The notes beneath the pieces were generated by a model. That model did no database searches. It saw only the letters and a program-made list of their open reading frames with translations, and was not told the DNA's origin. Below are positions 2,142 through 52,007 of a DNA stretch of 64,000 nucleotides, in pieces. The stretch comes from an uncultured Candidatus Saccharibacteria bacterium. GTDB lineage: Bacteria; Patescibacteriota; Minisyncoccia; UBA6257; Colwellbacteraceae. Location of the stretch: positions 39,726 to 103,725 of the forward strand of contig CAZXPC010000001.1 in assembly GCA_964643135.1 (NCBI GenBank), given 5' to 3'. Positions within the stretch are counted from its first letter, which is position 1; each line of letters begins with the position of its first letter. The position numbers and the translations under genes are program-made.

Positions 2142-2150
2142 TCAAGAATA

Positions 2151-3920
2151 TTAACCGTATCTTTCGCGGTCGTCGGTGTCATCATCGTCTTCAACTTTCA
2201 GGCTGTTTTTTAAGGTTGCGGCGAGGGAATCTGCGTTCTCTTCTTCGGAATTCTTGATGTGGTGCTTCGTCTCTTCATGAGGCTTAAGGTCCGATAAGGA
2301 AATTGTTTTTTCGGTTGAAACCGGCCGGGCGCCCGGGCGCTCATGCCGGCGTTCTTCCGGTTTTTTCTTCTTAGCATCAAATTCGATGCCAAGATTGGCG
2401 AGATCGGCGATATATTCGTTGGCCGCGGCGGCTCTCGGGGCAGGCCTGTTGAAGACGCTTGTTTTTGCCGAAGGTGCGCCCTTGGCCCCTCCGCCGCTCG
2501 ATGGCTGCCGTGCCGGCGCCGGTTTTTCTTGTTCCGCGCTGACCCGGCCAGCCCATTCGTTGATCTCTCTTTCGACTGAATCGCGGGAACGGCCGTAAAG
2601 CTTGCGGGATGATTCAATGATCTTTTCCTTCATGCCTTCTGAGGCAGGGAGCTCGATAGGCGGCAGAGTGTGCGCCGAAAACGGCCGGCTCGTGATGCCG
2701 TCGATCATAAGTTTTATATAAATAGAATAATTAGGTAGATTGACGATATCTTGAATGGTGAATTCAGGAGTAAATTCATTTTCGAGGAACTCGGCGTCAG
2801 CGGCGCCAACGCGGAAAACGACCATGGTGCCGACGTTGCCGAAAACGGCATCGCGGACCTTAGTCGAACCTCCGCCTCCAGCCGAAGAAACTGATGTAAT
2901 GAGCTGGCCGGTATACTGATGGGCGAGCGTCAAGTTGAGCCGGTACTTGCGGGCCTCCGACAGAATGTTGGAGAACGAGTCGGTGGCAAAGTTCTGGAAT
3001 TCATCTACATACAAGAAAAAGTCTTTCCGGTCGGCTTCGGGAATGCGGACGCGTTCCATGGCTGAAAGCTGAATTTTAGTGATGAACATGGCGCCCAGGA
3101 GAGCTGAGTTGTCTTCGCCGATTCTGCCTTTTGAAACGTTCAGAAGGAGGATCTTTTTATTGTTCATCAGATCGAAGATGTCGATGGTGCTCTTTTGCTG
3201 GCCGACGACGTTTCGGATGATGTTGGTCGATAGGAACTGTCCGACTTTGTTCTGAATCGGGGCGATAGCCTCGCTCCGGAATTTATCCTGCCAGCCTTCG
3301 TATTCGTGAATCCAGAAAGCCCTGACTACCGGGTCTTTAACGTTGGAGATTATTTTTTGGCGGTAGCTTTTGTCCACCAAGAGCCGCGGGATGCCGAGCA
3401 GAGTTGTATCCGGAGTGTCGAGCAGAGCGAGAATAGCGTTATTCAAAATATATTCCATACGGGCCGACCAGGCGTTCGACCAGATCTTGGTAAAGATGCC
3501 CATCAGGCCCGAAGCGACCAGATGCTTGTATTTAGGGTCCGGTAACTCCAAAACATTGAAGCCGATGTGATAGTCGGTATCAGCGGGGTTAAAGTAGATT
3601 ACGTCCTGGAGGCGGTGGGCGGGAATTTGGTTTAAGAGGTCTTCGACGAACTCGCCGTGGGGATCGACCACACACAGGCCGTCGCCGTTCGTAACGTCTT
3701 GGATCGCCAGGTTTTTAAGGAGGACGCTCTTACCGGTGCCGGTTTTACCGATCACATACATGTGTTGTCGGCGGTCTTTTCTTTTAATGCCGAAGAGCTT
3801 GTCATGATTCCGGAAGTTAGTCGTGCCGAAAAAAACGACATCAGGTTTCTTACCTAGGAAATCCTGAGCTTTCTTTTCTTCGGTCTTTTTCTTATCCGGG
3901 GCGTGGCTTCCGTGGCTCAT
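2151..3920 (-). CDS. Type IV secretion/conjugation coupling-protein-like ATPase (TraD/TraG/VirD4/TrwB family), with low-complexity acidic C-terminal tail
   Basis: Walker A VIGKTGTGKS. Walker B/DExx-like FFLYVDEFQNF. RKYRLNLTLAHQ motif typical of TrwB/TraD family. C-terminal Gly/Pro/Ala-rich linker and EDDDDTDD tail. Confidence 0.7.
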   Translation of the reverse strand: MSHGSHAPDKKKTEEKKAQDFLGKKPDVVFFGTTNFRNHDKLFGIKRKDRRQHMYVIGKTGTGKSVLLKNLAIQDVTNGDGLCVVDPHGEFVEDLLNQIPAHRLQDVIYFNPADTDYHIGFNVLELPDPKYKHLVASGLMGIFTKIWSNAWSARMEYILNNAILALLDTPDTTLLGIPRLLVDKSYRQKIISNVKDPVVRAFWIHEYEGWQDKFRSEAIAPIQNKVGQFLSTNIIRNVVGQQKSTIDIFDLMNNKKILLLNVSKGRIGEDNSALLGAMFITKIQLSAMERVRIPEADRKDFFLYVDEFQNFATDSFSNILSEARKYRLNLTLAHQYTGQLITSVSSAGGGGSTKVRDAVFGNVGTMVVFRVGAADAEFLENEFTPEFTIQDIVNLPNYSIYIKLMIDGITSRPFSAHTLPPIELPASEGMKEKIIESSRKLYGRSRDSVEREINEWAGRVSAEQEKPAPARQPSSGGGAKGAPSAKTSVFNRPAPRAAAANEYIADLANLGIEFDAKKKKPEERRHERPGARPVSTEKTISLSDLKPHEETKHHIKNSEEENADSLAATLKNSLKVEDDDDTDDRERYG

Positions 3921-4012: not shown

Positions 4013-4582
4013 ATGTCATTGGCGTATAACGAACTAAAACCGGGAACTTTTTTGGATATCGACGGCGAACCGTGGGAAGTCTTGGAATTCGCCTTTTTAA
4101 GGATGCAGCAGAGAAAGCCGGTGGCCAAGACTAAGCTTAGAAACTTAGTGACTGGCCGCGTGATGGAGCAGACTTTTCATCAGAGCGACAAGATTGAAGA
4201 GGCTGATTTGCAGAAAGAAGACATCAAGTTTATCTACGCTAATAGAGGAGAGTTTTGGTTTACGGCGCCCAACGACCCGTCTAAGAGATTTTCCCTCCCG
4301 GAGAAGAAGATTGTCGGTAAATCGGAATTCTTAAAGCCCAATATGATCTTAATTGCGCTCAAGTTCGGCGATGATGTCGTTGAAGTTAAGATGCCGATTA
4401 AGGTTGAGTACAAAGTTATCGAAGCTCCGCCGGCGATTAAGGGCAACACAGCTCAGGGCGGCAATAAATCGGTTACGATCGAGGGCGGCGGCAAAGTTTT
4501 AACTCCGCTTTTTGTGAATGAAGGAGACATAATTCGAGTTAACACCGAAACCGGCGACTACGTTGAACGCGTCAACGCCTAA
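4013..4582 (+). CDS. efp: Elongation factor P
   Basis: 189 aa. N-terminal NELKPGTFLDIDGEPWEVLEF and KPG...KTKLRNLVTG..MEQTF pattern of EF-P. Length is typical. Confidence 0.9.
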   Translation: MSLAYNELKPGTFLDIDGEPWEVLEFAFLRMQQRKPVAKTKLRNLVTGRVMEQTFHQSDKIEEADLQKEDIKFIYANRGEFWFTAPNDPSKRFSLPEKKIVGKSEFLKPNMILIALKFGDDVVEVKMPIKVEYKVIEAPPAIKGNTAQGGNKSVTIEGGGKVLTPLFVNEGDIIRVNTETGDYVERVNA

Positions 4583-4629
4583 AAGCTGATCAGGCCACAC
4601 TCATCCACAGGCGGTCAAGTTGTATCTGT

Positions 4630-4648
4630 ATAGCATATGTGCTATATT
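4630..4648 (+). promoter_or_regulatory. 19-nt motif ATAGCATATGTGCTATATT (inverted arms ATAGCA-N4-TGCTAT fused to a TATATT -10-like box). An identical copy lies upstream of the HTH-murA gene at about 47332-47350 on the other strand.
   Basis: Exact 19/19 identity between the two sites in the same gene-relative orientation. Here it is preceded by TTGTAT at -35 spacing (17 nt) and sits about 37 nt upstream of the glmS ATG. Confidence 0.55.
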
Positions 4649-4685
4649 CGTCTTAAGAGGTTAACTAAAAATAAATTTTCTAGAA

Positions 4686-6527
4686 ATGTGCGGAATTGTC
4701 GGCTATACCGGTAAGAGAAAACCACTACAAGTCCTTGTCGACGGTTTGCGAAGCCTTGAGTATCGCGGTTATGATTCCGCCGGTGTCTCGTTCTGGGACG
4801 GAGAGAAAATAAAAACTATAAAAAAAGCCGGCCGGTTAGACAACTTGGTCGGACTTTTAACGGGCGAAGTGGATTACCCCGACCAGGCGGCGATTGGCCA
4901 CACGCGCTGGGCTACCCACGGCGAACCAAATGATGTGAATGCCCACCCGCATTTTGACTGCCATGAAGAAATTTCTTTGGCCCATAACGGCATTATCGAG
5001 AACTACAAGATTCTGAAGTCTAAGCTCGAGAAGAGGGGCCACAAATTTAAATCTCAGACCGACACCGAAGTCATTACCCACTTAATTGAAGAGGAATTTA
5101 AGAACCCGAAGAACGACACCTCCGAAAAGGCGATTCTGAGTTCGGTTAAGAAATTACGGGGAGCTTTTTCATTGGTCATCTTGATCAGGAGAGAGCCCAA
5201 TAAACTTTTTGCGATTAGGAACTTCAGTCCGCTCATTTTGGGCATCGGTACCGATGAATATATTATTGCCTCAGATCCGACGCCGATTATAAAATACACC
5301 AAGCAGATCATATATATGAATGACGGTGATATGGCAGTCGTCACTCCCGCGGGTTATGAATTTATTGACTTCCGCCACCAGTCTTTGAATAAAGATGTGA
5401 GCGAGATTGACTGGACTGTGGAAGAGGCGGAGAAGAGTGGCCATGAACATTTTTCGATGAAAGAGATTATGGAACAGCCCGAAGTGATCGAAAACGTTTT
5501 ACGAGGCCGGCTCTTAGTCGAGGAAGGGCGAGCTAAATTGGGCGGCCTGGACTCTGTCCAAGAGAAATTGAGAAATATTAAACGTATTATTATCACCGCT
5601 TGCGGTACGGCTGGTTTTGCCGGCAATGTCGGAGAATACATGATCGAAGAGTATGCCGGGATTCCGGTTGAAGTTGATTTGGCTTCGGAATTTAGATATC
5701 GAAAGCCGATTATTGACCCAGACACCGCTGTTATCTGCGTTTCCCAGTCCGGGGAGACGGCTGATACGCTGGCGGCCTTGCGCGAATCGAAAGAGAAGGG
5801 GGCGCTGACCTTGGGAGTCGTGAATGTCGTTGGCTCTTCAATTGCTCGTGACAGCCATGCCGGGGTTTATACGCACGCGGGTCCCGAAAAATCGGTGGCT
5901 TCGTACAAGGCGTTTACTTCACAGCTGACGGCTATGGCGCTCTACACATTATTTTTGGGCAGACAGCGAGGTATGTCGGTTGTGACTGGCAAGCGAATCG
6001 CCGAAGAGCTGAAACTGATCCCGGACCTAATGCGCGAAGTATTAAAACAATCTGATGAAATTAAAGATATAGCTAAGAGATATAAAGATTTCAATAACTT
6101 CCTATATGTCGGACGGAAATATAATTATCCGATTGCTTACGAAGGCGCGTTGAAGATGAAAGAGGTCTCGTATGCGCACGCCGAGGGCTACAGCTCGGCC
6201 GAAATGAAACACGGCCCGATCGCGATGATCGATAAAGATTTTCCGACCGTAGCAATTATTCCCAAAGACAGCGTTTACGAAAAGAATTTTTCAAATTTGC
6301 AGGAAATTAAAGCCCGAAGCGGCCCGATTATCGCGATTGCGACTAAGGGCGACAAAGATATCAGGCATATTACGAAAGATGTGATTTTTATACCCAAGAC
6401 TTTGGAAATGCTAACTCCGCTTTTGTCAGTGATTCCGCTCCAGCTTTTTGCTTACCACTCAGGTGTGGCGCGCGGAAGAGACGTTGATAGGCCGCGAAAC
6501 TTGGCAAAGTCGGTTACGGTGGAGTAA
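4686..6527 (+). CDS. glmS: Glutamine--fructose-6-phosphate aminotransferase (isomerizing)
   Basis: 613 aa. N-terminal MCGIVGY Ntn-amidotransferase start. Two SIS domains (VSQSGETADT). C-terminal ...VDRPRNLAKSVTVE. Confidence 0.95.
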   Translation: MCGIVGYTGKRKPLQVLVDGLRSLEYRGYDSAGVSFWDGEKIKTIKKAGRLDNLVGLLTGEVDYPDQAAIGHTRWATHGEPNDVNAHPHFDCHEEISLAHNGIIENYKILKSKLEKRGHKFKSQTDTEVITHLIEEEFKNPKNDTSEKAILSSVKKLRGAFSLVILIRREPNKLFAIRNFSPLILGIGTDEYIIASDPTPIIKYTKQIIYMNDGDMAVVTPAGYEFIDFRHQSLNKDVSEIDWTVEEAEKSGHEHFSMKEIMEQPEVIENVLRGRLLVEEGRAKLGGLDSVQEKLRNIKRIIITACGTAGFAGNVGEYMIEEYAGIPVEVDLASEFRYRKPIIDPDTAVICVSQSGETADTLAALRESKEKGALTLGVVNVVGSSIARDSHAGVYTHAGPEKSVASYKAFTSQLTAMALYTLFLGRQRGMSVVTGKRIAEELKLIPDLMREVLKQSDEIKDIAKRYKDFNNFLYVGRKYNYPIAYEGALKMKEVSYAHAEGYSSAEMKHGPIAMIDKDFPTVAIIPKDSVYEKNFSNLQEIKARSGPIIAIATKGDKDIRHITKDVIFIPKTLEMLTPLLSVIPLQLFAYHSGVARGRDVDRPRNLAKSVTVE

Positions 6528-8681
6528 CTAGTGTCCGCCGTATTTTTTCTTGAGAGCGGAGATTTCTTCCGGCGTTAAGTTGTTGTAGACGGCGAGCCAA
6601 TCGCTCGCGATTTGATGAGCGGCGATACTTAGATCGACTCGGCCGTCGCAGACCTGGCCTTGCAAATAAATTTCGACTAAGTCTTTCTCGTGAAAGCCCG
6701 GCACGGGCGCCGCGGCCTCAGGAAATAAGTTCGCGATATCATTTGATCCGCCCAAGGCCAACGGCACAATGTGGTCAACTTCATAAGCGCCCTTGGCCGG
6801 CGGGTAAGGTAAGTCATATTCCGCAAAAACTTGCTTGCGCAATTTGGGGGAGACGTTGCGAACGGACTTGGTGTAGCCTTTGACGCAGATTTCTTCGACT
6901 GTGGCGTTGGGAAAAATCGCTCCGGGCGAACAATCCGAATTGGGTAGAGGGCCTTTTATTTCGCACGAAGCAGTTTTGATCCGCGTCAAGATTGGTGGGA
7001 GGGGCGCGGCGGCTGATGAACTGGCGAGGAGCGATTGCATATTTTCTTTCGCGGCCTTATTTGACTCTGAGTGGCGGAAAGATATGAGGCCGGCCGCGGA
7101 GATTGTGAGCAGAAATGCGACCAAGGGAATTAGAAAGGGGATTTTGTTCTTCGATTGCCTAAAAAGATAATAGAAAAATAGCCCATAAATCAGGATAACC
7201 AGGACAAATGGAAATTGGGGGATGGTAAGCGATGCGAACGGCAAGCGAGAGAAAAGATTGATGATGCCAAGTTCATAGCGAAGCAAGACATAAGATATTT
7301 TGCCGGGAACGAAGGCGACGATATTCGAAATAATGCCCGCGAAGCCGGTTGCGAAACCAAAGATCATGGTGAAAGGAATGAATGGCAGCACTAATAGGTT
7401 GGCTGGGATAGTAACGAGCGACCAAGTTCCCATCTTCCAAATAATGAAGGGCAGAATAAAGATATAGACCGCAATTGTGAGAGCAGCGGATTCGCGGAGC
7501 CACGTCCATTTAATTACTTGGAGCTTTTCCTCGACTCGGGGAGTGAAAAACAATACGGCAATCGTGGCCAAAAAAGAGAGTTCGAAAGAGACATCAAAAG
7601 CCAGAATAAACGGGTTAAGGAAGATCATAATGACGCCGGCGCAAATTAGGGCCCGCCCCGCGTCATAAGTGCGGCCGGTCAGTCGGGCGATGAGGACTAG
7701 CAAGGCCATAATGCCGGCGCGAATTGAAGTCTGCGCTGCGCCGGTCATCAGAATATATGAAAGAACGCCCAGCATGGCTATGATGCCGCCGAAAACGGCC
7801 GGCAGGAAACCGAACAGCTTTAAAATCATGTTAGAGACCAGGCTGACATGATAACCGGCGATAGTTACCAAGTAGACTAAGCCGGTTGAGGTCAAAGCTA
7901 TTTTCTCATCTGCGCTAAACGAGGCGCGGTCGCCTAAAATTAATCCCCGCATGAATCCCGATTCGGGTTCTGATATTGATGAATCTAAATTGGCGACTAG
8001 CCGGCCGCGGACTAAGAAAAGCCACCGTTTCAGGAAATTTCCGCCGCCGGTCGAAATGACTGTGATTTTTGGGTTTCGGACGACGTAGAAGATGCCGTCT
8101 TTTTTCAGATAATTTATGTAGTCGAAAGTTGCGCCCTGGTCAGTCGAGAAGTTCGCAGGTTTCTCTAATTTACCGGTAAAGGAAATGTTGTCGCCGTATT
8201 TATATTCCTGATCCCCTTTAGAGATGAGAAGAATATTGGTGTTTGTTCCTTGTCGCTCGGTCCCGACAACAATTTCAGTGCCGCTGTCTTTAACGATAGG
8301 CATATCTTTAATAAGTCCGGACAGAGTAACCGAGCTGCCCGTTTGATTTTCAAAAACAACGGGAGCCGGTTTATCAATAATCTCGAACCTAATGATCCCG
8401 AGCGAAAAAGCGAAAATAAAAAAAGATATTAATTTCATCCATTTTCCAATTTTCTCAAGGTCAGACCTCGAGAAAATGAAGAATAGGCCGATTACTAGCG
8501 AGATTGTCCCAAGGAAAGCGGCGGCGTAAAAGTCGAAAGGCAGAAATGACTTCCAAAGTATGCCCAGGACGAAACCCAGACACACCGAATTAAAGACCAT
8601 GTTTCTAGTCATGCTTATCTTTTTGGCTTGTATTTTTAGCCTGGAAAAATCATAATACGGGCGCGATGAAGAAAAAATCAA
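6528..8681 (-). CDS. comEC: ComEC/Rec2-family DNA internalization channel protein with C-terminal HNH-like nuclease motif (no metallo-beta-lactamase domain)
   Basis: N-terminal DUF4131-like region. Competence domain motif LILGDRASFSADEKIALTSTGLVYLVTIAGYHVSLV and multiple TM helices. C-terminal ~150 aa contain YEVDHIVPLALGGSNDIANL (HNH signature). The usual HxHxDH beta-lactamase motif is not seen. Confidence 0.75.
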   Translation of the reverse strand: MIFSSSRPYYDFSRLKIQAKKISMTRNMVFNSVCLGFVLGILWKSFLPFDFYAAAFLGTISLVIGLFFIFSRSDLEKIGKWMKLISFFIFAFSLGIIRFEIIDKPAPVVFENQTGSSVTLSGLIKDMPIVKDSGTEIVVGTERQGTNTNILLISKGDQEYKYGDNISFTGKLEKPANFSTDQGATFDYINYLKKDGIFYVVRNPKITVISTGGGNFLKRWLFLVRGRLVANLDSSISEPESGFMRGLILGDRASFSADEKIALTSTGLVYLVTIAGYHVSLVSNMILKLFGFLPAVFGGIIAMLGVLSYILMTGAAQTSIRAGIMALLVLIARLTGRTYDAGRALICAGVIMIFLNPFILAFDVSFELSFLATIAVLFFTPRVEEKLQVIKWTWLRESAALTIAVYIFILPFIIWKMGTWSLVTIPANLLVLPFIPFTMIFGFATGFAGIISNIVAFVPGKISYVLLRYELGIINLFSRLPFASLTIPQFPFVLVILIYGLFFYYLFRQSKNKIPFLIPLVAFLLTISAAGLISFRHSESNKAAKENMQSLLASSSAAAPLPPILTRIKTASCEIKGPLPNSDCSPGAIFPNATVEEICVKGYTKSVRNVSPKLRKQVFAEYDLPYPPAKGAYEVDHIVPLALGGSNDIANLFPEAAAPVPGFHEKDLVEIYLQGQVCDGRVDLSIAAHQIASDWLAVYNNLTPEEISALKKKYGGH

Positions 8682-9712: not shown

Positions 9713-9857
9713 GAGGTGTCACCTCGTCAGTTACCGAATAACCACCCAAGGGGAAGCCTTGGCAGCATATCTTGACGGAGTAGTGTTGCTGTGTTACGAT
9801 GGCTCCACGCTAAGAAAGGGAGTAAATCCCCTAAATTGGCGGTAGGATTGACCCACT

Positions 9858-10499
9858 ATGAAGATCAGATCAGTTGCGCTGACGGCTCTGTTGGCGCTGA
9901 CGATGACGACGCTCATCTGGCCCGCGAACTTGGCGAGCGGCGAAGGCAACTCGACGGCTGGCCAGACGCATACAGGCCACATGAGTGGCACGAACGTGAT
10001 GACTGACCTGCAGCTGCAGGCGATGAACGAAGCCAGACTCGCTACGATCCAGAAGCCCAGCTCGTCTGATTCGGCTCAGGGAGTGCCCGTGGCCGATCTG
10101 CGGAAGGCAACTCAGCAGGACACCTGCGGATCGAAGATCAACCAGCCTGACGATCGGCTACCCCAGGGAGCTGGCCTCGTGAGTAGCAGTAAGGGCTACA
10201 AGGCGGGCGAGCGGACCGCGTGGATGACGATTCCCGAAGGGATGAATCTCTATGCTACGGCTCTCGACAAGCCGTTCTGGATGTTCAGCCGCTACAGCGA
10301 GGAGAGCGTTCTTCCAAACGGCGGACGCAGCTACCAAGACGGCTTCCAGTACAGCCCATGCCATGGTTGGTCCTGGCAGTGGGTTGCGGCCGGCTGGACT
10401 CACCAGATCTACCTGCAGGCTGCCGAGAACAACACGAACTTCTATGTCGTTCTCGTCCCTGATCAACAAGGTACGTGCAGTAACGATTGCGGTGGCTGA
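9858..10499 (+). CDS. GC-rich island gene G1: secreted protein of unknown function (signal peptide, several Cys)
   Basis: N-terminal MKIRSVALTALLALTMTTLIWPANLASG signal peptide. Codons are strongly GC3-biased (cgc/gcg/ctg/acg), unlike the backbone. Own promoter-like TTGACG-17-TACGAT at about 9770-9798. Hairpin plus CTCTTTTTT terminator at about 10536-10578. Confidence 0.6.
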   Translation: MKIRSVALTALLALTMTTLIWPANLASGEGNSTAGQTHTGHMSGTNVMTDLQLQAMNEARLATIQKPSSSDSAQGVPVADLRKATQQDTCGSKINQPDDRLPQGAGLVSSSKGYKAGERTAWMTIPEGMNLYATALDKPFWMFSRYSEESVLPNGGRSYQDGFQYSPCHGWSWQWVAAGWTHQIYLQAAENNTNFYVVLVPDQQGTCSNDCGG

Positions 10500-44424: not shown

Positions 44425-45183
44425 ATGGCTTTGATAAAAACCGAAAAACAAATTGCTAATATCCGTGAGTCGGGGAAGATTTTGGGCTTGGTTTTGAGGA
44501 AACTCAGAAATGTAACCAAAGTCGGCGTGAGCCTGCTCGATCTCGATAAGTTTGCCCGCGAACTGATCGTGGAGCAGGGCGGGGAACCGGCTTTCTTGGG
44601 CTACCGACCCTACGGTGCCAAAACGGCTTATCCAGCGACTCTTTGCACTTCGGTTAATGATGTGATCGTTCACGGCCGGCCAACTAGCTACGTCCTGAAG
44701 TCCGGCGACGTGGTTAAGCTCGACCTGGGCGTGGTCTATAAAGGCGGCATAACCGATGCGGCTATAACTGTTGCGGTTGGGAAAGTTGATAAAGAAGCGC
44801 AAGACTTAATAAAAGTTACTGAAAACTCGTTAAGGGAAGCGATCAAATTTTGTTCGCCTAAGCATACTTTGGGAGACATCGGTTACGCGATTGAGAAAAC
44901 TGTTTCTGCTAAGAACTTTTTGATTGTTGAAGGGCTGACCGGCCATGGCGTTGGCGAAGAAATACATGAAGATCCATCCGTTTATAACTATGGCCACAAA
45001 GGGAGCGGTATGAAGCTTCAGCCAGGGATGGTTTTGGCAATTGAGCCGATGACCGCGATTGGCACATCTAAAATAATTCAGTTAAGAGATGACAGCTTCG
45101 CGACGGCTGACCAGAGCATGTCGGCGCACTTTGAACACACCGTGCTTATCACAGAGAAAGGCTGCGAAGTCTTAACTGCCTAG
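44425..45183 (+). CDS. map: Methionine aminopeptidase type I
   Basis: Metal ligands in VNDVIVHG, D..KLDLGVVYKGG, HGVGEEIHE and AIEPM...FEHTVLIT. A TATATAAT box lies 6 nt upstream of the ATG (leaderless-like). Confidence 0.92.
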   Translation: MALIKTEKQIANIRESGKILGLVLRKLRNVTKVGVSLLDLDKFARELIVEQGGEPAFLGYRPYGAKTAYPATLCTSVNDVIVHGRPTSYVLKSGDVVKLDLGVVYKGGITDAAITVAVGKVDKEAQDLIKVTENSLREAIKFCSPKHTLGDIGYAIEKTVSAKNFLIVEGLTGHGVGEEIHEDPSVYNYGHKGSGMKLQPGMVLAIEPMTAIGTSKIIQLRDDSFATADQSMSAHFEHTVLITEKGCEVLTA

Positions 45184-45788
45184 CGCTGATCCTTTCGGCG
45201 CGTTTCTAGGTGGGTTTCTTCGGGCTTTTCGATTTCCTCGATGATGGCCGCGGCCTCTTCTTTGGTTAGTCCGCCGGGTAGATTCATGTTGATAGCATCG
45301 GCAGGGTGCTGATAGTCTGGTTTGCTCTGCGGAATACTCTTAGGTATTTCACCTGTCTCGTCAGGGCGGATATCAAACTTCTCTTCGGCTTCTTTCTGAT
45401 TTTGCTTCAAGGCTGAAGCTTCAGCGTTGGTAAGGCCGCCAAAAGCGCCGGCCCCCTTCCCGAATCGGTCCCTAAGAGTCTTTGTCGCAAGCTCAATTCT
45501 GGTTTTTGTTTCTTCCTTGTCCTCGTTTTTGAGGTAGCCCATCGCTTCTTTTTCGGTGAAACCTTTGGGCAAGCCGGTGAATCTGGCTGTTTCCGCATCC
45601 ATTTTGGAGGATCCTATAATTGCCACTTTTTCCTCGCTCTTTCCTTTGTTGGCCGTAAATGAAGCAGCCTCCTTGGCTGTTAGACTTTCCGGCAAGCCGG
45701 TTTTTTTAGCAACCACCTTGCGTATTGGCTCCGGAGTTTCTCTATTCTGATTGTCGGCCGGATAAGAATTTGGGTTTTCTATTGACAT
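45180..45788 (-). CDS. Hypothetical protein with four TGLP/GGLT-x3-T.KEA repeats, charged and low-complexity
   Basis: Repeats TGLPESLTAKEAASF, TGLPKGFTEKEAMGY, GGLTNAEASALKQ and PGGLTKEEAAAIIEE. Convergent 4-nt overlap with map. Confidence 0.45.
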   Translation of the reverse strand: MSIENPNSYPADNQNRETPEPIRKVVAKKTGLPESLTAKEAASFTANKGKSEEKVAIIGSSKMDAETARFTGLPKGFTEKEAMGYLKNEDKEETKTRIELATKTLRDRFGKGAGAFGGLTNAEASALKQNQKEAEEKFDIRPDETGEIPKSIPQSKPDYQHPADAINMNLPGGLTKEEAAAIIEEIEKPEETHLETRRKDQR

Positions 45789-45824: not shown

Positions 45825-47333
45825 CTAGAAAGTTTTTATTTTGGCGCCGATGGAGTTCAACTTAGTGTGGATTTCTTCGTAGCCGCGGTTGATACTGTAG
45901 ACGTTGCGGAGAATCGAAGTGCCTTTGGCGGCCAGCATGCCCAAGAGAATTATGGCGGCCGGCCTTAGGGCGGGCGGGCAGACCACTTCGGCGGCTTTAA
46001 ACTCGATTGGTCCCACGATTTGCACCCGGTGCGGATCAATCAAATTGATATTGGCGCCGAGCTTTGTCATCTCAGTATAATAAATAGCGCGATTTTCGTA
46101 CACCCAGTCGTGGATCAGGGTCTGGCCTTCAGCTTTAGCCGCGATCGGCACAAAAAAAGGAAGGTTGTCGATATTAAGGCCCGGGTAGGGCGACGGGTGA
46201 ATCTTTTCTTCCAGGGCTTTCAGTTTGGAAGGATAGGTTTCGATATCAACGAGGTCGATCATGCCGTTCTCGCCTTTGTAGCGTTTGAGAATTTTATATT
46301 TAAAACCCATTTTTTCCATCTTTAAGAGCTCGAGAGCTAGGAAGTCGATCGGGCAGCGGAGAATCTTAATTGATGAGTTGGTGACGGCTGCGGCGGCGAG
46401 GTAGAGCATGCTGTCGATCGGGTCTTCGCTCACGGCGTACTCAACATCGCCGGCGATTTCCGGTTTGCCGTGAATCACCAGTTTGTGCGTACCGATGCCT
46501 TCGATTTTAACACCCAGTTTGACCAAGAAATAGCAAAGCTCCTGAACCATGTAGTTCGACGAGGCGAACTGGATGGTGGTTTTGCCCTTAAGTTTCGAAG
46601 CGGCCATGATGGCATTTTCCGTGGCGGTATCGCCGGATTCGTAGAGAACAATGTCGGCCGGTTTGAGTTTGCCGACCGAGACCCGGTAAACGTTATCTAG
46701 GGTTTCGATATTAACGCCAAGGTTTTCTAAAGCATACAGGTGCGGCCGAACAGTTCGCGAACCGAGCTTGCAGCCGCCGGCGTAAGGCAGGTCAAATTTC
46801 TTTAAGAGATGGATCAACGGACCCATGAGCATAATCACGGTCCGGGTTTTTAAAGCGGCTTGAATATTGATATCCTCGATCCTGATCTTAAGCGGGGGAG
46901 TGATTTGGAGAGTGTGGCGGTCCAGCCATTTGGTTTCAACGCCGATGCTGTTTAGTACTTCGACGATTCGGTTCACCTCTTCGATACGCGGCATATTTTT
47001 TAGAGTCGTCTTGTCCTTGTTTAAAAGCGCCGCGCAGAGAAGAACCATCGCGCCGTTCTTGGAAGAGTTGGTGGTAATCGTGCCGGATAAGGGGTGGCCG
47101 CCCTCAATTTGGAAATTCAAAGATTCAGGCAGGTTGATTAGCTGACGGTTAAGAACCTTGCTGATTTTGGAAAGCATTTCAGTCGTAAGATTCTGCTTGC
47201 CGGACTCGATCCGGGCGACGGCGCTTTGGGTGGTGTCTAAAAGCTTGGCTAAATCTTCCTGGGTCAGGCCCTTCTGGTCTCTAAGATCGGCGATAAATTT
47301 ACCTATTTTTTTAGGTGTGGACATGAGAGACAA
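45825..47333 (-). CDS. murA: UDP-N-acetylglucosamine 1-carboxyvinyltransferase fused to an N-terminal XRE-family helix-turn-helix domain
   Basis: N-terminal 60 aa KIGKFIADLRDQKGLTQEDLAKLLDTTQSAVARIESGKQNLTTEMLSKISKVL is a Cro/C1-type HTH. The remainder is MurA (KNGAMVLLCAALL; active-site Cys in LPYAGGCKLGSRTVRPHLYALENLG; C-terminal RGYEEIHTKLNSIGAKI). The true start is probably ATG at about 47324 (the track start is TTG). Confidence 0.85.
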   Translation of the reverse strand: MSLMSTPKKIGKFIADLRDQKGLTQEDLAKLLDTTQSAVARIESGKQNLTTEMLSKISKVLNRQLINLPESLNFQIEGGHPLSGTITTNSSKNGAMVLLCAALLNKDKTTLKNMPRIEEVNRIVEVLNSIGVETKWLDRHTLQITPPLKIRIEDINIQAALKTRTVIMLMGPLIHLLKKFDLPYAGGCKLGSRTVRPHLYALENLGVNIETLDNVYRVSVGKLKPADIVLYESGDTATENAIMAASKLKGKTTIQFASSNYMVQELCYFLVKLGVKIEGIGTHKLVIHGKPEIAGDVEYAVSEDPIDSMLYLAAAAVTNSSIKILRCPIDFLALELLKMEKMGFKYKILKRYKGENGMIDLVDIETYPSKLKALEEKIHPSPYPGLNIDNLPFFVPIAAKAEGQTLIHDWVYENRAIYYTEMTKLGANINLIDPHRVQIVGPIEFKAAEVVCPPALRPAAIILLGMLAAKGTSILRNVYSINRGYEEIHTKLNSIGAKIKTF

Positions 47334-47350
47334 TATAGCACATATGCTAT
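47332..47350 (-). promoter_or_regulatory. Second copy of the 19-nt ATAGCATATGTGCTATATT motif (read on minus strand), abutting the HTH-murA start
   Basis: The plus strand reads aatatagcacatatgctat, the exact reverse complement of the glmS-upstream motif at 4630-4648. Confidence 0.55.
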
Positions 47351-47375
47351 TAGTTGGGAAGAGGGCGCGGCCCGC

Positions 47376-49949
47376 CTAGCTCCGTTTTGTGATGCCGCTA
47401 ATTGTCAGGAACCGGCCGTTGGGGTTGGCTTTGCCGTTCTTGTCAGTCGGCGCGGGTTCATTTTCGTAGCCCATTTTATTGAGTCTTTCTACAAATGCGT
47501 TAGCCAGTTCTTTCTCTTTAATGGTTCGGTAGTTCATTTTATGTTCGCCATTTCTTAAAGCTGATTGGAGTTGGCCCATTTCTTCCGCGTCTAGTTTAGC
47601 CAAGCCAGCTTCTCTATATTCTTCGGGGCTGACTTTTAGCCCAGCCATCAATAACTGTTCGGCGGTAGGCGCCGGTTCTGGCTGTGGCTCAGGTTCAGGT
47701 GCAGGAGGAGCGGGTGCTGGAGCTGGTTCGGGAGCGGCCGGAGTGGGTTCGGGGATCGGGGCGGGCTCCTTACTAATATTGGTTATGAATTTCTTGTCGT
47801 CCCGTTCTTTAACTTCGAAACTATTATAGCCCATCTTCTGGAGCATGCCTTTGGCGTCGGCGTTAGAGGTTGCTGCGCGAACCTTTTCTCCGGTCAGCCA
47901 GTCTACTTCGTCCGGATCTTCGGCAAGGTTTTCATTAAATGATTTTGCCGCGATAGCCTTAAATAATATATTCAATGACTTGCCCGGCAGTTGCGGCAAC
48001 TTTTCTGCTACCGTTTTCTCTAGCGTTATTCCTAACTTATCCGCTATTTTTGAGCTGATTCTGTTCCAGGCGATGTTTGAGTCCAGTCTTTCGAGGTCGG
48101 AAATTTCTTCAGCCGTTAAGCCTATCTCGGCGGCTCGGCGGCGCATAATTTCCTTGAAAGACATATCTGATTTTTCGTATTCAAAATCTCGGATCATCTG
48201 CCTTCGGATATCCTCCATGGTGTAATCTTTTAATTCCACATCATCAGGGAATAGTTTATGGATGTCTTCCGTGCCTTTCATCTCCAGGGCGTCCAGGAGC
48301 CTGATATAATTTTCTCGGTAATTAATTTTGCCCGTTTCGCGCCAGTTTTTTGACCGGCCGAGCAGCATGACTCCTCTAACGGGGATAACCTTGATAAGAT
48401 CCGGCGGCAGTTTTAACTCTTCAACCCGCCTCGCGATATCGGTCAGGTCTCGGTTGGTTTGAATGAAGAAGCTATTTTGAGAAGGGTAATATCTGATCAA
48501 AGTATCGTACCCGTAAGCCTTGAGGGCCTCGTTATGAATGTCGGGCAGGTCCAGTCTCCGGCCGCCCCGCACTTTCCGGTAACTGACCCAGTCGATTAAA
48601 GTTTTGCCCCACTTCGGGTGGTCGATCGGCCGGCCTAGGTCGCCTTCTTTTGCCATAGCCTCGACGGCATGCTGAATATTATTTTTAGACCGCTCGGTAT
48701 TTTCTTTCACCAGTTCCGTGGCCTCATAGATATTATTCAACCTATGTTTTTGTGGAACTTCAAACATCTTTTTCTCTCCGCTGCTCGTGGTGAATTCTTT
48801 CATGACCCATTTCCGGGCGGTAAAAGACAGGGCCGCGTTTTTAGTGTAGGTTTCGTCGAGCGGTTGTCTCGGGTCAAAATCGGGTCCGCCTTCTTGGAAG
48901 ATCTTCATAATTTCTTGGTAGGGGATAATCCGGTAAAGACCATAGAGAGTTTTTGACCAGTCTCCGGCATAGAATTCCGGGGTTATTTCATAATCCAAGT
49001 TGTCGATTTGGGTTACAAATTTAACCAGGTTTCTTTCCCATGGTTCGAGTTCGGTTTGCGAGAGCAGGTCGGTTGCTTCTAAGCTTTCCAATATTACCTG
49101 GGAGGCCGAGGTTGAGGGGCCCTTTTCCTTCTGGTGGTGGTCGGCGAAAAGGCTCCCGTCTTTTTCGAGAGTTAAGCCGGCTGGCCGCCCGCCGGTATCG
49201 ATATTAAATTCGCCCTTCAACCAATTGCCCTTTTTAACCAAGACGATTTCCAAAATTGTGTCCGGAGAATATTTTCTGATTGCTTTTTCCAGCAAATAGG
49301 CCGCGAAATTAGCGTCAAGATCGGGCGTTTGGTGCAGCACGATCTTCTTTAATTTGCCTCCTTTAATAAGATCAATAAGTTTTTGCTTAGCAGCTTCGGA
49401 AGACTCAGATTCTGATCTGGGTTCGTCTCCGGCGAGGCCGTCGGTATGAGTTATTCTATATTTTGCTTCGTCATTGAAACGAGCCTCGGTGCGTTCTTGG
49501 TTTTCCTTTTTCTCTTCTTCAGGATCGATAATGTCTTCCACTTCCGGTTCGTCTTCTGCGGGGACTTCAGCCCGCCCGGGGCCGAGGTTTCTCCTTGCGT
49601 CTATTTCAGCCCACTTAGTTTTATAGTCATTAGGGAAAAGTATCAGAGCCCGGATCTTGTCTCCGATCCAAGCGTTTTCTTGGTATAGCCTTTGCCTTTT
49701 TTCCCGGGTGGACCAGTTGGCTTCGAGCCAGGCCTCGAGTTCACTTTGCGTATGCCCTGACCGATTGGTTTTCACGCCTGCTTCTAAATCTTTTTGAGCC
49801 ATGGCCGACTTAAAATAAGCCGCGCCCATTTGTTCCCAGCTTATATCAGCTTTGAGGTTAAGCGCATAGATAGCAGCCCACCTTTCTTTTTCTTTTTCGC
49901 GGTCGGGCCTTTGCTCAGCGCGCGTTGTGGGGCTAGGGTGTCTTTCCAT
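47376..49949 (-). CDS. Large hypothetical protein with DHH-type phosphoesterase motifs and a Pro-rich (PAPEPEP) linker
   Basis: 857 aa. VLHQTPDLDANFAAYLL (DHH motif I-like DxD) and GSLFADHHQ (DHH motif III). PEPTPAAPEPAPAPAPPAPEPEPQPEPAP linker near C-terminus. Confidence 0.6.
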   Translation of the reverse strand: MERHPSPTTRAEQRPDREKEKERWAAIYALNLKADISWEQMGAAYFKSAMAQKDLEAGVKTNRSGHTQSELEAWLEANWSTREKRQRLYQENAWIGDKIRALILFPNDYKTKWAEIDARRNLGPGRAEVPAEDEPEVEDIIDPEEEKKENQERTEARFNDEAKYRITHTDGLAGDEPRSESESSEAAKQKLIDLIKGGKLKKIVLHQTPDLDANFAAYLLEKAIRKYSPDTILEIVLVKKGNWLKGEFNIDTGGRPAGLTLEKDGSLFADHHQKEKGPSTSASQVILESLEATDLLSQTELEPWERNLVKFVTQIDNLDYEITPEFYAGDWSKTLYGLYRIIPYQEIMKIFQEGGPDFDPRQPLDETYTKNAALSFTARKWVMKEFTTSSGEKKMFEVPQKHRLNNIYEATELVKENTERSKNNIQHAVEAMAKEGDLGRPIDHPKWGKTLIDWVSYRKVRGGRRLDLPDIHNEALKAYGYDTLIRYYPSQNSFFIQTNRDLTDIARRVEELKLPPDLIKVIPVRGVMLLGRSKNWRETGKINYRENYIRLLDALEMKGTEDIHKLFPDDVELKDYTMEDIRRQMIRDFEYEKSDMSFKEIMRRRAAEIGLTAEEISDLERLDSNIAWNRISSKIADKLGITLEKTVAEKLPQLPGKSLNILFKAIAAKSFNENLAEDPDEVDWLTGEKVRAATSNADAKGMLQKMGYNSFEVKERDDKKFITNISKEPAPIPEPTPAAPEPAPAPAPPAPEPEPQPEPAPTAEQLLMAGLKVSPEEYREAGLAKLDAEEMGQLQSALRNGEHKMNYRTIKEKELANAFVERLNKMGYENEPAPTDKNGKANPNGRFLTISGITKRS

Positions 49950-51499
49950 TATTTCTTGCTTACTAAGTCTACGGCTTCGGCTAGCGTTGTGAGGTCGGCT
50001 GATCGGTCAAAGCCCAAGTCTTCCGCAACGTTTTTAGTCAGTTCTTCGAGTTGAATGTTTTTGTCCACTTCGCTGAAGTCTTTTTCCAAAACCTCCTTTT
50101 TATCTGCCAGCCTTTCTTCGGTCTCCGCGGCCTGGTGAACTTTCTGCGATTCCGAGACAACATCTTTAGGCTTGGCGTCAGGATAGCCCTCGCCGGTTGC
50201 AACCTTTTTGACGCTCTCTTTGACCTTAGTCCAGAAAGTTTTTTCGCCGCTGTCTTTGTACGAAGCGCCCTTAATCAGTCTGTGAAGCCTAAGGACTTTC
50301 ACAATGTGTTCATCTTTCATGCCCTTCTTAATAACGCCGGTGTCGATCAGCTTCTTATAGAGTTTGTAATATTTCTTTCTGTAAGCGTCGATCACGTCGG
50401 CCGGTTTCTTGTCTCTCGCTAAGCCGAATTTTTCCAGCTCTTTAGCCAGAATATCCTGAAAAATAGTTTTGTCGTCAGTAGTGGAGTATTCGAAACGGTC
50501 GGCGTCTTCTAAGTGTCCTTCTGTTGCGTGTCCTTCTGTGTGTCCGGTTCCGGCGCCATGGGCTTCAGTAGAGGCGCCGCCGCGGGCGTTGTTTTCGGCG
50601 GTTGCGTTTTGGCTAGGTTGATTTTGCGTTCTGGCGGTCGACAGATCCATTTCGGACGTGGCTCTAACTCCGCCTTCCTCCAATCTTTCCCTATTAGCTT
50701 CGGCACCGGCATTGACTTCCGGAGCGCCGGCTGCGTGGCTTTCAGCCTTAATGTCGCCGATTTTGCCCTTTGCTTTCAACTCGAATATCTGCTTCAGAGT
50801 TGTTTCAGGCGGGAGATTGTACTGGGCAATAATTTGTCGTTTAAGAAGCTCGATTCGGTCTTTCTGGTCGCGGATATCAAGATTCCGATCTTTAACGATG
50901 CCTTCCACCTTGGCCGCTTCAGCGGTTTTATTAAACATCGCCATAGCATCGGCGACGTCCGGATTTTCCATGCTGATTTCACGGGCGAATTGAAGCGCTT
51001 TTTCTTTTCTATCGCGGCCCATCTGTTCCTGGTCTTTGTAGAAGCCGGGCTCGTTCATAGCCTCAAAAGCCGGGCCTTGCAGCCTCTCAAGTTCCATTTC
51101 CTCACGTTCTTTGGCCGGGTCGGTTACCGGTATATCGACATTTCTAAAAGCGGTTCCAACTTTGTTATCCAGCTCTCTTTGTTTCTTTTCTGCCGCCATT
51201 TCTTCGCGCTCTTTAACCGCTCTGGCTTCGTCGTTGATTTCTTCCTGTCTTTGGTTCGCCTTTTTATATGCGCCCACAGAAAAGGCCTCGGTGTTAGCAT
51301 CACCCGGGTTAAACTCCAGTTCCTTCTCTCCTTTCTCCTTGTTTTTCTTATTGGCTTCACGAGCCTCCTTGATCAATGTCTCTTTCGCCAATTCCTCAAC
51401 AGTAATTCTGGCCGCTTCTTTGGCAGCCTCTCTAACCTGAGCGTTCTCATCCGTGTCATTAAGGTCCGGGACTCTTATGTTTTCAAATGATTTTGACAT
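49949..51499 (-). CDS. Highly charged (E/K/A-rich) coiled-coil hypothetical protein; N-terminus paralogous to 51516-52007
   Basis: 516 aa. N-terminal MSKSFENIRVPDLNDTDENAQVREAAKEAARITVEEL matches MSKSIENFKMPNLEDDDAEVQVEDAAKEAAKITTEEL of the next gene. The antisense ORF 50513-51490 is an F/L-rich shadow. Confidence 0.55.
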   Translation of the reverse strand: MSKSFENIRVPDLNDTDENAQVREAAKEAARITVEELAKETLIKEAREANKKNKEKGEKELEFNPGDANTEAFSVGAYKKANQRQEEINDEARAVKEREEMAAEKKQRELDNKVGTAFRNVDIPVTDPAKEREEMELERLQGPAFEAMNEPGFYKDQEQMGRDRKEKALQFAREISMENPDVADAMAMFNKTAEAAKVEGIVKDRNLDIRDQKDRIELLKRQIIAQYNLPPETTLKQIFELKAKGKIGDIKAESHAAGAPEVNAGAEANRERLEEGGVRATSEMDLSTARTQNQPSQNATAENNARGGASTEAHGAGTGHTEGHATEGHLEDADRFEYSTTDDKTIFQDILAKELEKFGLARDKKPADVIDAYRKKYYKLYKKLIDTGVIKKGMKDEHIVKVLRLHRLIKGASYKDSGEKTFWTKVKESVKKVATGEGYPDAKPKDVVSESQKVHQAAETEERLADKKEVLEKDFSEVDKNIQLEELTKNVAEDLGFDRSADLTTLAEAVDLVSKK

Positions 51500-51515: not shown

Positions 51516-52007
51516 TTATTCTCCAAATGCTATTTTTTTCAGACTTCTTAATGTTTCCAAATCATTGACGTCATTCGCATGATTTATTTCCTTCATCAAA
51601 TCATCGCGTTTGGCCTTTTGGGCTGGGTTGTATGTTCGGAGATCCGGATGAAAAGTTTTGGCCAGTAGCCTATAAATCATCGTTTGTTCTTTCGGCTTGG
51701 GCTGTCTCTTTAAGCTCGAATCAGGTGCGGGGTCTTCTTGCCTGGCGCCCTTGGCCTCGGCGAGTAGTTTCTCGATCATTTCGTCTTCTTCCCTTTCCTT
51801 TTTTTCAGACTCGGCTTTTGTTCTGGCCGCTTCCGCTCGCGCTGATTCAGTTTCTATATATTTCGCATATAATTCGTCGGTTAGGATCTTTTTTGATAGT
51901 TCTTCAGTGGTAATCTTCGCGGCTTCTTTGGCCGCATCTTCAACCTGAACTTCGGCATCATCATCTTCAAGATTCGGCATCTTGAAATTCTCAATTGATT
52001 TGGACAT
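51516..52007 (-). CDS. Small charged protein with C-terminal J-domain-like region (HPD motif)
   Basis: 163 aa. MIYRLLAKTFHPDLRTYNPAQKAKRDDLMKEINHA resembles DnaJ J-domain helix II-III with the HPD tripeptide. Confidence 0.5.
   Translation of the reverse strand: MSKSIENFKMPNLEDDDAEVQVEDAAKEAAKITTEELSKKILTDELYAKYIETESARAEAARTKAESEKKEREEDEMIEKLLAEAKGARQEDPAPDSSLKRQPKPKEQTMIYRLLAKTFHPDLRTYNPAQKAKRDDLMKEINHANDVNDLETLRSLKKIAFGE

Follow-up and report, generated by a model that had tools for sequence, protein, structure and literature searches.

The window analyzed here, a stretch of 64,000 nucleotides (nt) from contig CAZXPC010000001.1 of an uncultured Candidatus Saccharibacteria bacterium, encodes on its minus strand a UDP-N-acetylglucosamine (UDP-GlcNAc) 1-carboxyvinyltransferase, MurA, that is fused in frame to an N-terminal helix-turn-helix (HTH) domain of the XRE (Cro/C1) type. 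MurA catalyzes the first step committed to peptidoglycan synthesis, the transfer of the enolpyruvyl group of phosphoenolpyruvate (PEP) to UDP-GlcNAc. We propose that the fusion protein (HTH-MurA) is a bifunctional enzyme-repressor (i.e., a "trigger enzyme") that would autoregulate its own gene and control genes for the UDP-N-acetylmuramic acid (UDP-MurNAc) precursor, and we put the probability of this reading at roughly 75%. A first-pass annotation of the window had suggested a moonlighting, autoregulatory enzyme. Autoregulation finds support in a putative operator at the gene's own promoter, in the covariation of this operator with the recognition helix and in the absence of the site from a relative that lacks the HTH; as for "moonlighting", the dual role stands, but a better description is an enzyme-repressor with two functions, of the same type as BirA, NadR and PutA.

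The open reading frame (ORF) is single and continuous from 45825 to 47333 (minus strand), i.e., both the ORF list of the window and the sequence itself are free of frameshifts and internal stop codons. The ORF list places the start at the TTG codon at 47333, giving a translation of 502 amino acids (aa); the ATG at 47324-47322 gives a protein of 499 aa plus stop (45825..47324) and is the likely true start, as the N-termini of homologues align there (MSTPKKIGKF as compared to MSTLKEIGKF and others). Pfam matched both halves within this one ORF. In the numbering of the 502-aa translation, HTH_3 (PF01381) covers aa 14-64 with 58.9 bits (cutoff, 23; E = 4.9e-16), and EPSP_synthase (PF00275) covers aa 77-492 (profile positions 2-417 of 417; E = 6.8e-50). 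The first-pass annotation had thus correctly described an XRE HTH in frame with a complete MurA, and the two peptides that it quoted (LTQEDLAKLLDTTQSAVARIESGKQNLTTEMLSKISKVL and GGCKLGSRTVRPH) are both found in the translation. The Pfam match to the HTH covers approx. 51 aa rather than the 60 aa given. It is fair to call enzymes that carry an HTH rare, although the class is known. In public databases, proteins with this architecture carry the plain MurA name only.

Numbered on the 499-aa protein, the HTH domain comprises aa 11-61 (47142..47294, minus strand). An AlphaFold2 (AF2) model, which is confident in both the HTH and the MurA domain (mean predicted local distance difference test score (pLDDT) of 88.5; predicted template modeling score of 0.81), places helices at residues 3-17, 22-29, 33-40 and 48-58. 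The recognition helix, QSAVARIE, corresponds to aa 33-40, and the specificity residues T31-T32 lie just before it. The NCBIfam models that score highest for this domain are XRE-type antitoxin and repressor families, with the antitoxin family TIGR03070 as the best match. A short linker of approx. 10 residues (LNRQLINLPES, aa 59-68; 47121..47150, minus strand) joins the HTH to the MurA domain (aa 69-499; 45828..47120, minus strand), which in the model shows the inside-out alpha/beta repeats of the two-domain EPSP-synthase-type fold. The linker is predicted to be flexible (pLDDT < 50 at residues 63-66; mean of 56 over the block 61-70); because of its low confidence, the relative orientation of the HTH and MurA domains is undefined in the model.

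The 18-mer ATAGCATATGTGCTATAT, a palindrome of the form ATAGCA-N4-TGCTAT, occurs in two exact copies in the window, at 4630-4647 (plus strand) and at 47350-47333 (minus strand). Only 0.05 matches would be expected by chance, and the observed count was reached in none of 100 shuffles. Position weight matrix scores of the two sites are 25.6 and 17.8 bits, and the next best site in the 64 kb scores 0.7 bits. A motif shared between the HTH-murA region and positions 4627-4650 had already been reported in the first-pass annotation; the two sites share the exact 18-bp palindrome, and the window holds no comparable third site. The first putative operator (operator 1; 47333..47351, minus strand; ATAGCA-TATG-TGCTAT) ends 8 nt before the murA ATG and overlaps the extended -10 element of a sigma-70-like promoter site found by a consensus scan (47332..47360, minus strand), which consists of TTCCCA (47360-47355), a 17-nt spacer and TG-n-TATATT (47337-47332). 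As the predicted -10 element ends 7 nt before the ATG, the HTH-murA mRNA is probably leaderless. The second putative operator (operator 2; 4629..4647, plus strand; TATAGCATATGTGCTATAT) is located between efp and glmS, 38 nt before the glmS ATG, and its right half likewise forms an extended -10 element (TGcTATATT).

The palindrome is conserved among relatives of the fusion gene. One genome per GTDB species was scanned, which yielded at least 600 candidate stretches, of which the best 80 loci were analyzed further; the regions upstream of the fusion gene were extracted from these loci and a matrix was built from their sites. The consensus across loci is TATAkCAyATrTGmTATA (18 bp), with nearly every locus carrying either TATATCAyATrTGATATA or, as the window does, the variant TATAGCA...TGCTATA. 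Matches to the matrix of at least 14 bits numbered 70 in 1.29 Mb, whereas shuffled sequence gave 1; almost all of the 70 were located directly upstream of HTH-murA. Among the 76 loci with enough upstream sequence, 63 had a site of at least 14 bits no more than 260 nt upstream of the fusion gene, and most of the remaining 13 carry weaker palindromes of the same form. The 18 positions of the palindrome are near-invariant, with the left half conserved to the same degree as the right, while the bases just outside are at background composition; this pattern is the signature of a protein-binding site and not of general promoter similarity. A TTG-type -35 element abuts the palindrome in 25 of 61 sites, and across loci the palindrome covers the spacer and the -10 region. 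The phyla with the palindrome on the promoter of the fusion gene range from approx. 35% to 72% GC; in the actinobacterial loci (67-72% GC), an AT-rich palindrome (e.g., ATCTCACATGTGAGTT) is the sole such sequence in 12-21 kb and is located just before the fusion gene. As a negative control, the palindrome was looked for and not found at L060, the sole relative without the HTH, in which MurA (66% identity) starts at the NFKVIGG junction and is encoded in an ftsZ-trxB-murA operon.

The sequence of the operator half-site tracks the residue directly before the conserved Gln with which the recognition helix begins. TATCA half-sites pair with TSQS in approx. 40 loci, TAGCA half-sites pair with TTQS or STQS in all 15 cases (including the window), and the TAACA half-site of L076 pairs with TAQS; moreover, relatives with AINRIE instead of AVARME in the helix show altered operator centers. 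On a rough neighbor-joining tree built from the MurA domain alone, the TAGCA/TTQS combination marks at least 3-4 separate branches: a large clade, L037, the lineage of the window, and L050, the last of which is nested within a group of TATCA/TSQS relatives. That protein and site changed together at least three times independently indicates that the fused HTH reads the palindrome, and would be hard to account for otherwise.

An unbiased search for the palindrome in metagenome contigs gave 120 motif matches, about two thirds of them AT-rich noise (e.g., microsatellite-like contigs). This search recovered 17 HTH-MurA loci as well as 23 stand-alone XRE proteins of small size whose HTHs are related to the fused one; each of the latter has the palindrome on its own promoter and several are located beside Gp49/HigB-like toxins. 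These stand-alone relatives place the fused HTH in a subfamily that autoregulates through such sites, and the MurA-fused HTH seems to derive from, or to share ancestry with, the XRE antitoxin subfamily associated with Gp49/HigB. Toxin-antitoxin pairs with a TATAGCATATATGCTATA-type palindrome were observed in L083, L086, L089, L092, L104, L120, L136, L141, L150, L174 and L187, and a Gp49/HigB-like toxin and small XRE antitoxin pair with a palindrome of this type on its promoter is also present at 17483-18167 of L032, one of the murA loci.

Some murA loci show further elements around the operator. Five Doudnabacteria-like loci (L006, L012, L016, L018 and L032) carry two operator copies approx. 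45-60 nt apart before murA (60-80 nt upstream), one strong and the other degenerate and beside the ATG; such a pair could allow cooperative binding. In three Paceibacteria loci (L011 at approx. 9820-9900, L017 at approx. 9790-9880 and L035 at approx. 1630-1720), an inverted repeat of approx. 20 nt (ACGGGACAAGTATTGC ... ACTTGTCCCGT) brackets the operator and murA follows an unusually long leader of 110-150 nt, which could reflect a larger regulatory structure or a leader RNA. A DnaA-box-like motif (ATCCAC / TTATCCACA) was found just upstream of the murA operator in 18 of 63 sites, as compared to approx. 1 expected. The motif was rejected as a general signal, as it is partly just the coding sequence of the N-terminus of the divergent murB (..VDIK..); in L005, L014, L025, L028, L037, L042, L054, L063 and L072 it is non-coding and located 13-35 nt before the operator. 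The window has a copy at 4603-4609, and no enrichment of ATCCAC was found in the window overall.

Operators were also found at other cell wall genes (all Pfam-confirmed). In many loci, murB is divergent from murA and is transcribed away from the same operator; mreB is the divergent neighbor across the operator in three metagenome loci; and second operators are located between murC and a small ORF that precedes a gene for a D-Ala-D-Ala dipeptidase-like protein (Peptidase_M15). In the window, the putative further regulon member is glmS, encoding glutamine-fructose-6-phosphate aminotransferase (4686..6527, plus strand), whose product has the N-terminus MCGIVGY and homologues named GlmS with GATase_6/7 and SIS domains. 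Its conserved upstream neighbor is efp, encoding elongation factor P (4013..4582, plus strand; Pfam EFP_N and Elong-fact-P_C). The closest relatives of this glmS (L201-L203; 88% and 85% GlmS identity) have a perfect TATAGCATATATGCTATA 8-40 nt before glmS in intergenic sequence that is otherwise unrelated to that of the window, i.e., the operator alone has been kept. In L204 (Colwellbacteria, 76% GlmS identity), efp and glmS abut in an operon and the palindrome is located before efp, with diverged flanks, and L205 and L206 (Colwellbacteria, 66% GlmS identity) have a degenerate site only. Neither a glmS ribozyme nor any other Rfam family was detected near or upstream of the glmS of the window.

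The leader of the window glmS is approx. 31 nt long, with no Shine-Dalgarno sequence near the ATG; in L203 (706-731), the glmS operator ends 8 nt before the glmS ATG, a leaderless-type arrangement as at murA. Synteny around efp and glmS is seen within the clade (window 384-3920 and 6528-8681; L201, L204 and L205), with a gene for a TrwB/VirD4-like type IV coupling ATPase upstream and genes for ComEC (Competence/DUF4131) and a tRNA methyltransferase nearby.

Several points weigh against the reading of HTH-MurA as an enzyme-repressor, and some of these would fit a protein that is a regulator only, with the MurA-like domain acting as a non-catalytic ligand sensor (cf. BzdR) and a separate canonical MurA performing the catalysis. 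The domain scores 319.7 bits with the strict MurA equivalog model TIGR01072, under the cutoff of 392.7; its score with the NCBIfam MurA subfamily model NF006873, on the other hand, exceeds the cutoff (333.3 against 297 bits), and it shows approx. 37% identity to solved MurA structures (best E = 6.8e-63, MurA 5ujs). The equivalent of Asp369 is Ala452, as the TDLRAS of solved MurAs is replaced family-wide by PPALRP, in which the Leu and Arg are retained. This position is not known to be essential, however, as MurA with the D369N substitution is viable in E. coli, where it gives fosfomycin resistance. The residues known to be catalytic in MurA, i.e., Lys22/Asn23, Cys115 with its loop, Arg120, Asp305 and Arg397 (E. 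coli numbering), align with K89/N90, C185 (codon at 46770-46772), R190, D301 and R480 of HTH-MurA, none of which varies across 69 homologues (or in a set of 20). Actinobacterial carriers have the gene in an unrelated housekeeping neighborhood and may well have a second murA; no second murA was found within the 64-kb window, however, and the HTH-less gene of L060, which belongs to the same subfamily, is placed in its operon like a housekeeping gene. We consider the enzyme half of HTH-MurA to be a complete and probably catalytically active MurA, and a purely regulatory protein to be unlikely.

A second group of points concerns what binds the palindrome. The right half of the palindrome doubles as an (extended) -10 element and could in part be conserved as promoter sequence, and the same type of palindrome is used by other XRE proteins, so another regulator could share the sites. 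It is conceivable that the palindrome is a plain promoter or is bound by a different XRE protein (e.g., a HigA-like antitoxin such as those of the stand-alone XRE/Gp49 toxin-antitoxin pairs, with the identical palindrome type on their promoters), and that the fused HTH has another role (e.g., nucleoid tethering or protein-protein contact). We regard this as very unlikely, since an operator base co-varies with a recognition-helix residue of the fused HTH in several independent lineages, and HTH and site were lost together in L060. The equal conservation of the left half, which is not part of the promoter, and the retention of the site in high-GC Actinomycetota, in which the flanking sequence has no clear TATAAT-type -10 hexamer, also argue against a plain promoter. 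Finally, the 64-kb window encodes no other HTH of the same family.

The remaining points against an enzyme-repressor are of a more general nature. DNA binding, repression, dimerization and catalysis by HTH-MurA are deductions from sequence comparison. Canonical MurA has been described as a monomer, whereas HTH-MurA would presumably bind the palindrome as a dimer. The palindrome ends no more than 17 nt from the chosen ATG in approx. 40 of 64 loci, but such operator-to-ATG distances are approximate, as the ATGs in the other loci were chosen heuristically. With regard to glmS, no operator was found within 3 kb of this gene in Moran-, Sungii-, Wolfe- and Jorgensenbacteria, and no glmS-associated site was present among the 120 metagenome motif matches. 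As a universal regulon member glmS was thus rejected; its sites are limited to the clade of the window, which indicates that glmS is a clade-specific addition to a murA-centered core regulon.

The fusion itself is widespread. A protein homologue search covered 5.8 billion proteins, and all of the 120 best matches examined, which come from many independent projects, are approx. 500 aa long, have both domains and share a junction with the conserved linker motif NFxIEGG; these 120 matches lie in Patescibacteria (Paceibacteria, Colwell-, Taga-, Doudna-, Liptonbacteria and others). One homologue, P0001, is 100% identical to the HTH-MurA of the window and is encoded on a 169-kb contig. In the genome scan, the fusion was confirmed in 591 of the 600 candidate stretches listed, i.e., in at least 590 species-level genomes, and the junction was spanned in 79 of the best 80 loci. 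A search of 50%-identity clusters with query residues 1-130 found the junction spanned in approx. 90 of the best 150 cluster representatives; this search provides no usable count of the fusion, because few clusters take up the whole family and many of their representatives are incomplete proteins. The first-pass annotation had called for a check of the reading frame at the junction and of the phylogenetic distribution: the frame is uninterrupted, homologues show the same in-frame junction, and the fusion extends across Patescibacteria (the candidate phyla radiation, CPR) and a few Actinomycetota. An artefactual joining of a small HTH gene to murA by a frameshift, a sequencing error or a chimeric assembly, for which no supporting point was found, is ruled out by the presence of the same junction in hundreds of genomes from independent projects, including genomes of isolates. 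The N-terminal 130-residue query also matched three long proteins, P0243 (1002 aa), P0251 (703 aa) and P0319 (1133 aa), with 8-13 tandem XRE-type HTH repeats, an unusual architecture that is unrelated to MurA.

Five of the best 80 loci are from Actinomycetota. These full-length fusions (L071, L075, L078, L079 and L080) are of the Intrasporangiaceae/Dermatophilaceae type and include the isolates Janibacter massiliensis (L078) and Nostocoides vanveenii (L080). In Janibacter, HTH-murA is flanked by fadA/fadB-like genes and by dxs/aconitase genes. The actinobacterial copies are sister to the Saccharibacteria copies in the rough MurA-domain neighbor-joining tree. As Actinomycetota are the host phylum of Saccharibacteria, this sister relationship suggests horizontal transfer between the epibiont lineage and the phylum of its hosts.

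Genes beside HTH-murA in the window (47376-49949, 49949-51499, 45180-45788 and 51516-52007; all on the minus strand) have no Pfam family. One of the flanking genes, which ends 26 nt upstream of the murA operator, encodes a protein of 857 aa with a repeat rich in Pro, Ala and Glu (PAPEPAPAPAPPAPEPEP).

In the mechanism that we propose for the enzyme-repressor, the N-terminal XRE HTH would bind the 18-bp palindrome, presumably as a dimer, and the bound protein would block RNA polymerase at the murA promoter, resulting in negative autoregulation. Repression seems more plausible than activation because the operator overlaps the spacer and the -10 element. As operators are also found at murB, murC, mreB, the dipeptidase-like gene and, in the clade of the window, glmS, HTH-MurA appears to set not only its own level but also that of the UDP-GlcNAc/UDP-MurNAc supply line. 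A more speculative extension is that a ligand in the MurA active site (UDP-GlcNAc, PEP or UDP-MurNAc) alters the affinity for the operator, so that the enzyme would act as its own metabolite sensor, as BirA does; the idea is attractive, but we consider it less likely than not. MurA undergoes a transition between open and closed domain arrangements and UDP-MurNAc is a feedback ligand of the enzyme. If the ligand-driven open-to-closed movement were passed via the short linker to the HTH, the transcription of murA, murB, murC, mreB and, in some clades, glmS would be set directly by the flux state of the step that commits precursors to peptidoglycan synthesis.

The closest parallels are other pathway enzymes that also act as repressors. 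Like HTH-MurA, BirA combines an N-terminal DNA-binding domain with an active enzyme of the repressed pathway and has a palindromic operator that overlaps the promoter, and in both proteins the architecture is suited to control of DNA binding by the ligand state of the enzyme. However, BirA consists of a winged HTH and a biotin-ligase fold rather than an XRE/Cro-type HTH and an EPSP-synthase fold, and its corepressor (biotinyl-5'-AMP) and dimerization are established, whereas ligand dependence of HTH-MurA is hypothetical. NadR and PutA are similarly single polypeptides that are both a pathway enzyme and a repressor of the pathway genes, including their own; they differ in their DNA-binding folds (ribbon-helix-helix in PutA), enzymes and pathways. 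BzdR shares with HTH-MurA an N-terminal XRE HTH, a short linker and a domain derived from an enzyme fold, and the fused HTH shows a weak match to the BzdR-type family NCBIfam NF006015 (E = 9e-6); the shikimate-kinase-like domain of BzdR, however, is a non-catalytic benzoyl-CoA sensor, whereas the catalytic residues of HTH-MurA are intact.

With regard to its two halves taken separately, the HTH is closest to the HigA-like, Gp49-associated XRE antitoxins (approx. 40% identity; E = 1e-8 to 1e-11), which have TATAGCATATATGCTATA-type palindromes on their own promoters but are stand-alone proteins of approx. 90-130 aa in toxin-antitoxin operons, with neither an enzyme domain nor any cell wall connection. 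Canonical MurA (E. coli/Enterobacter cloacae) has the same two-domain EPSP-synthase fold, Cys115 loop and K22, R120, D305 and R397 equivalents, and differs from HTH-MurA, which adds the N-terminal HTH and the promoter operator, has Ala in place of Asp369 and scores below the equivalog threshold. The glmS ribozyme, the GlmY/GlmZ small RNAs (sRNAs) and GlmR/YvcK also adjust UDP-GlcNAc precursor supply to the state of the pathway further downstream; these systems act through RNA or through activation of the GlmS protein, whereas here a DNA operator precedes glmS, in one clade.

In the full-text literature searched we found no published description of an HTH-MurA fusion or of its operator, which is not proof of novelty, and no enzyme-repressor fusion described for a peptidoglycan enzyme. 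With HTH-MurA, a cell wall enzyme would join the small set of enzymes that act as repressors of the pathway to which they belong (BirA, NadR and PutA). The presence of the fusion in culturable Actinomycetota (Janibacter and Nostocoides) makes the proposal directly testable, as the protein and the 18-bp site suffice for binding assays, and the pairing of TSQS with TATCA and of TTQS with TAGCA lends itself to a specificity swap.

Patescibacteria/CPR represent a large share of bacterial diversity and have tiny genomes; to our knowledge, almost nothing is known about their gene regulation, and in bacteria generally there is little understanding of how transcription of the gene for the committed step of peptidoglycan synthesis is controlled. 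Against this background, a protein annotated just as "MurA" would represent a transcription factor that, together with its operator and a small cell wall regulon, has been conserved across the radiation. The combined picture, in which HTH-MurA is a sensor-repressor, forms the main cell wall precursor circuit of Patescibacteria and has been exchanged with Actinomycetota, is put forward tentatively, and we think it less likely than not; if true, this circuit would take the place of the systems that other bacteria use, i.e., the glmS ribozyme, GlmR and sRNAs.

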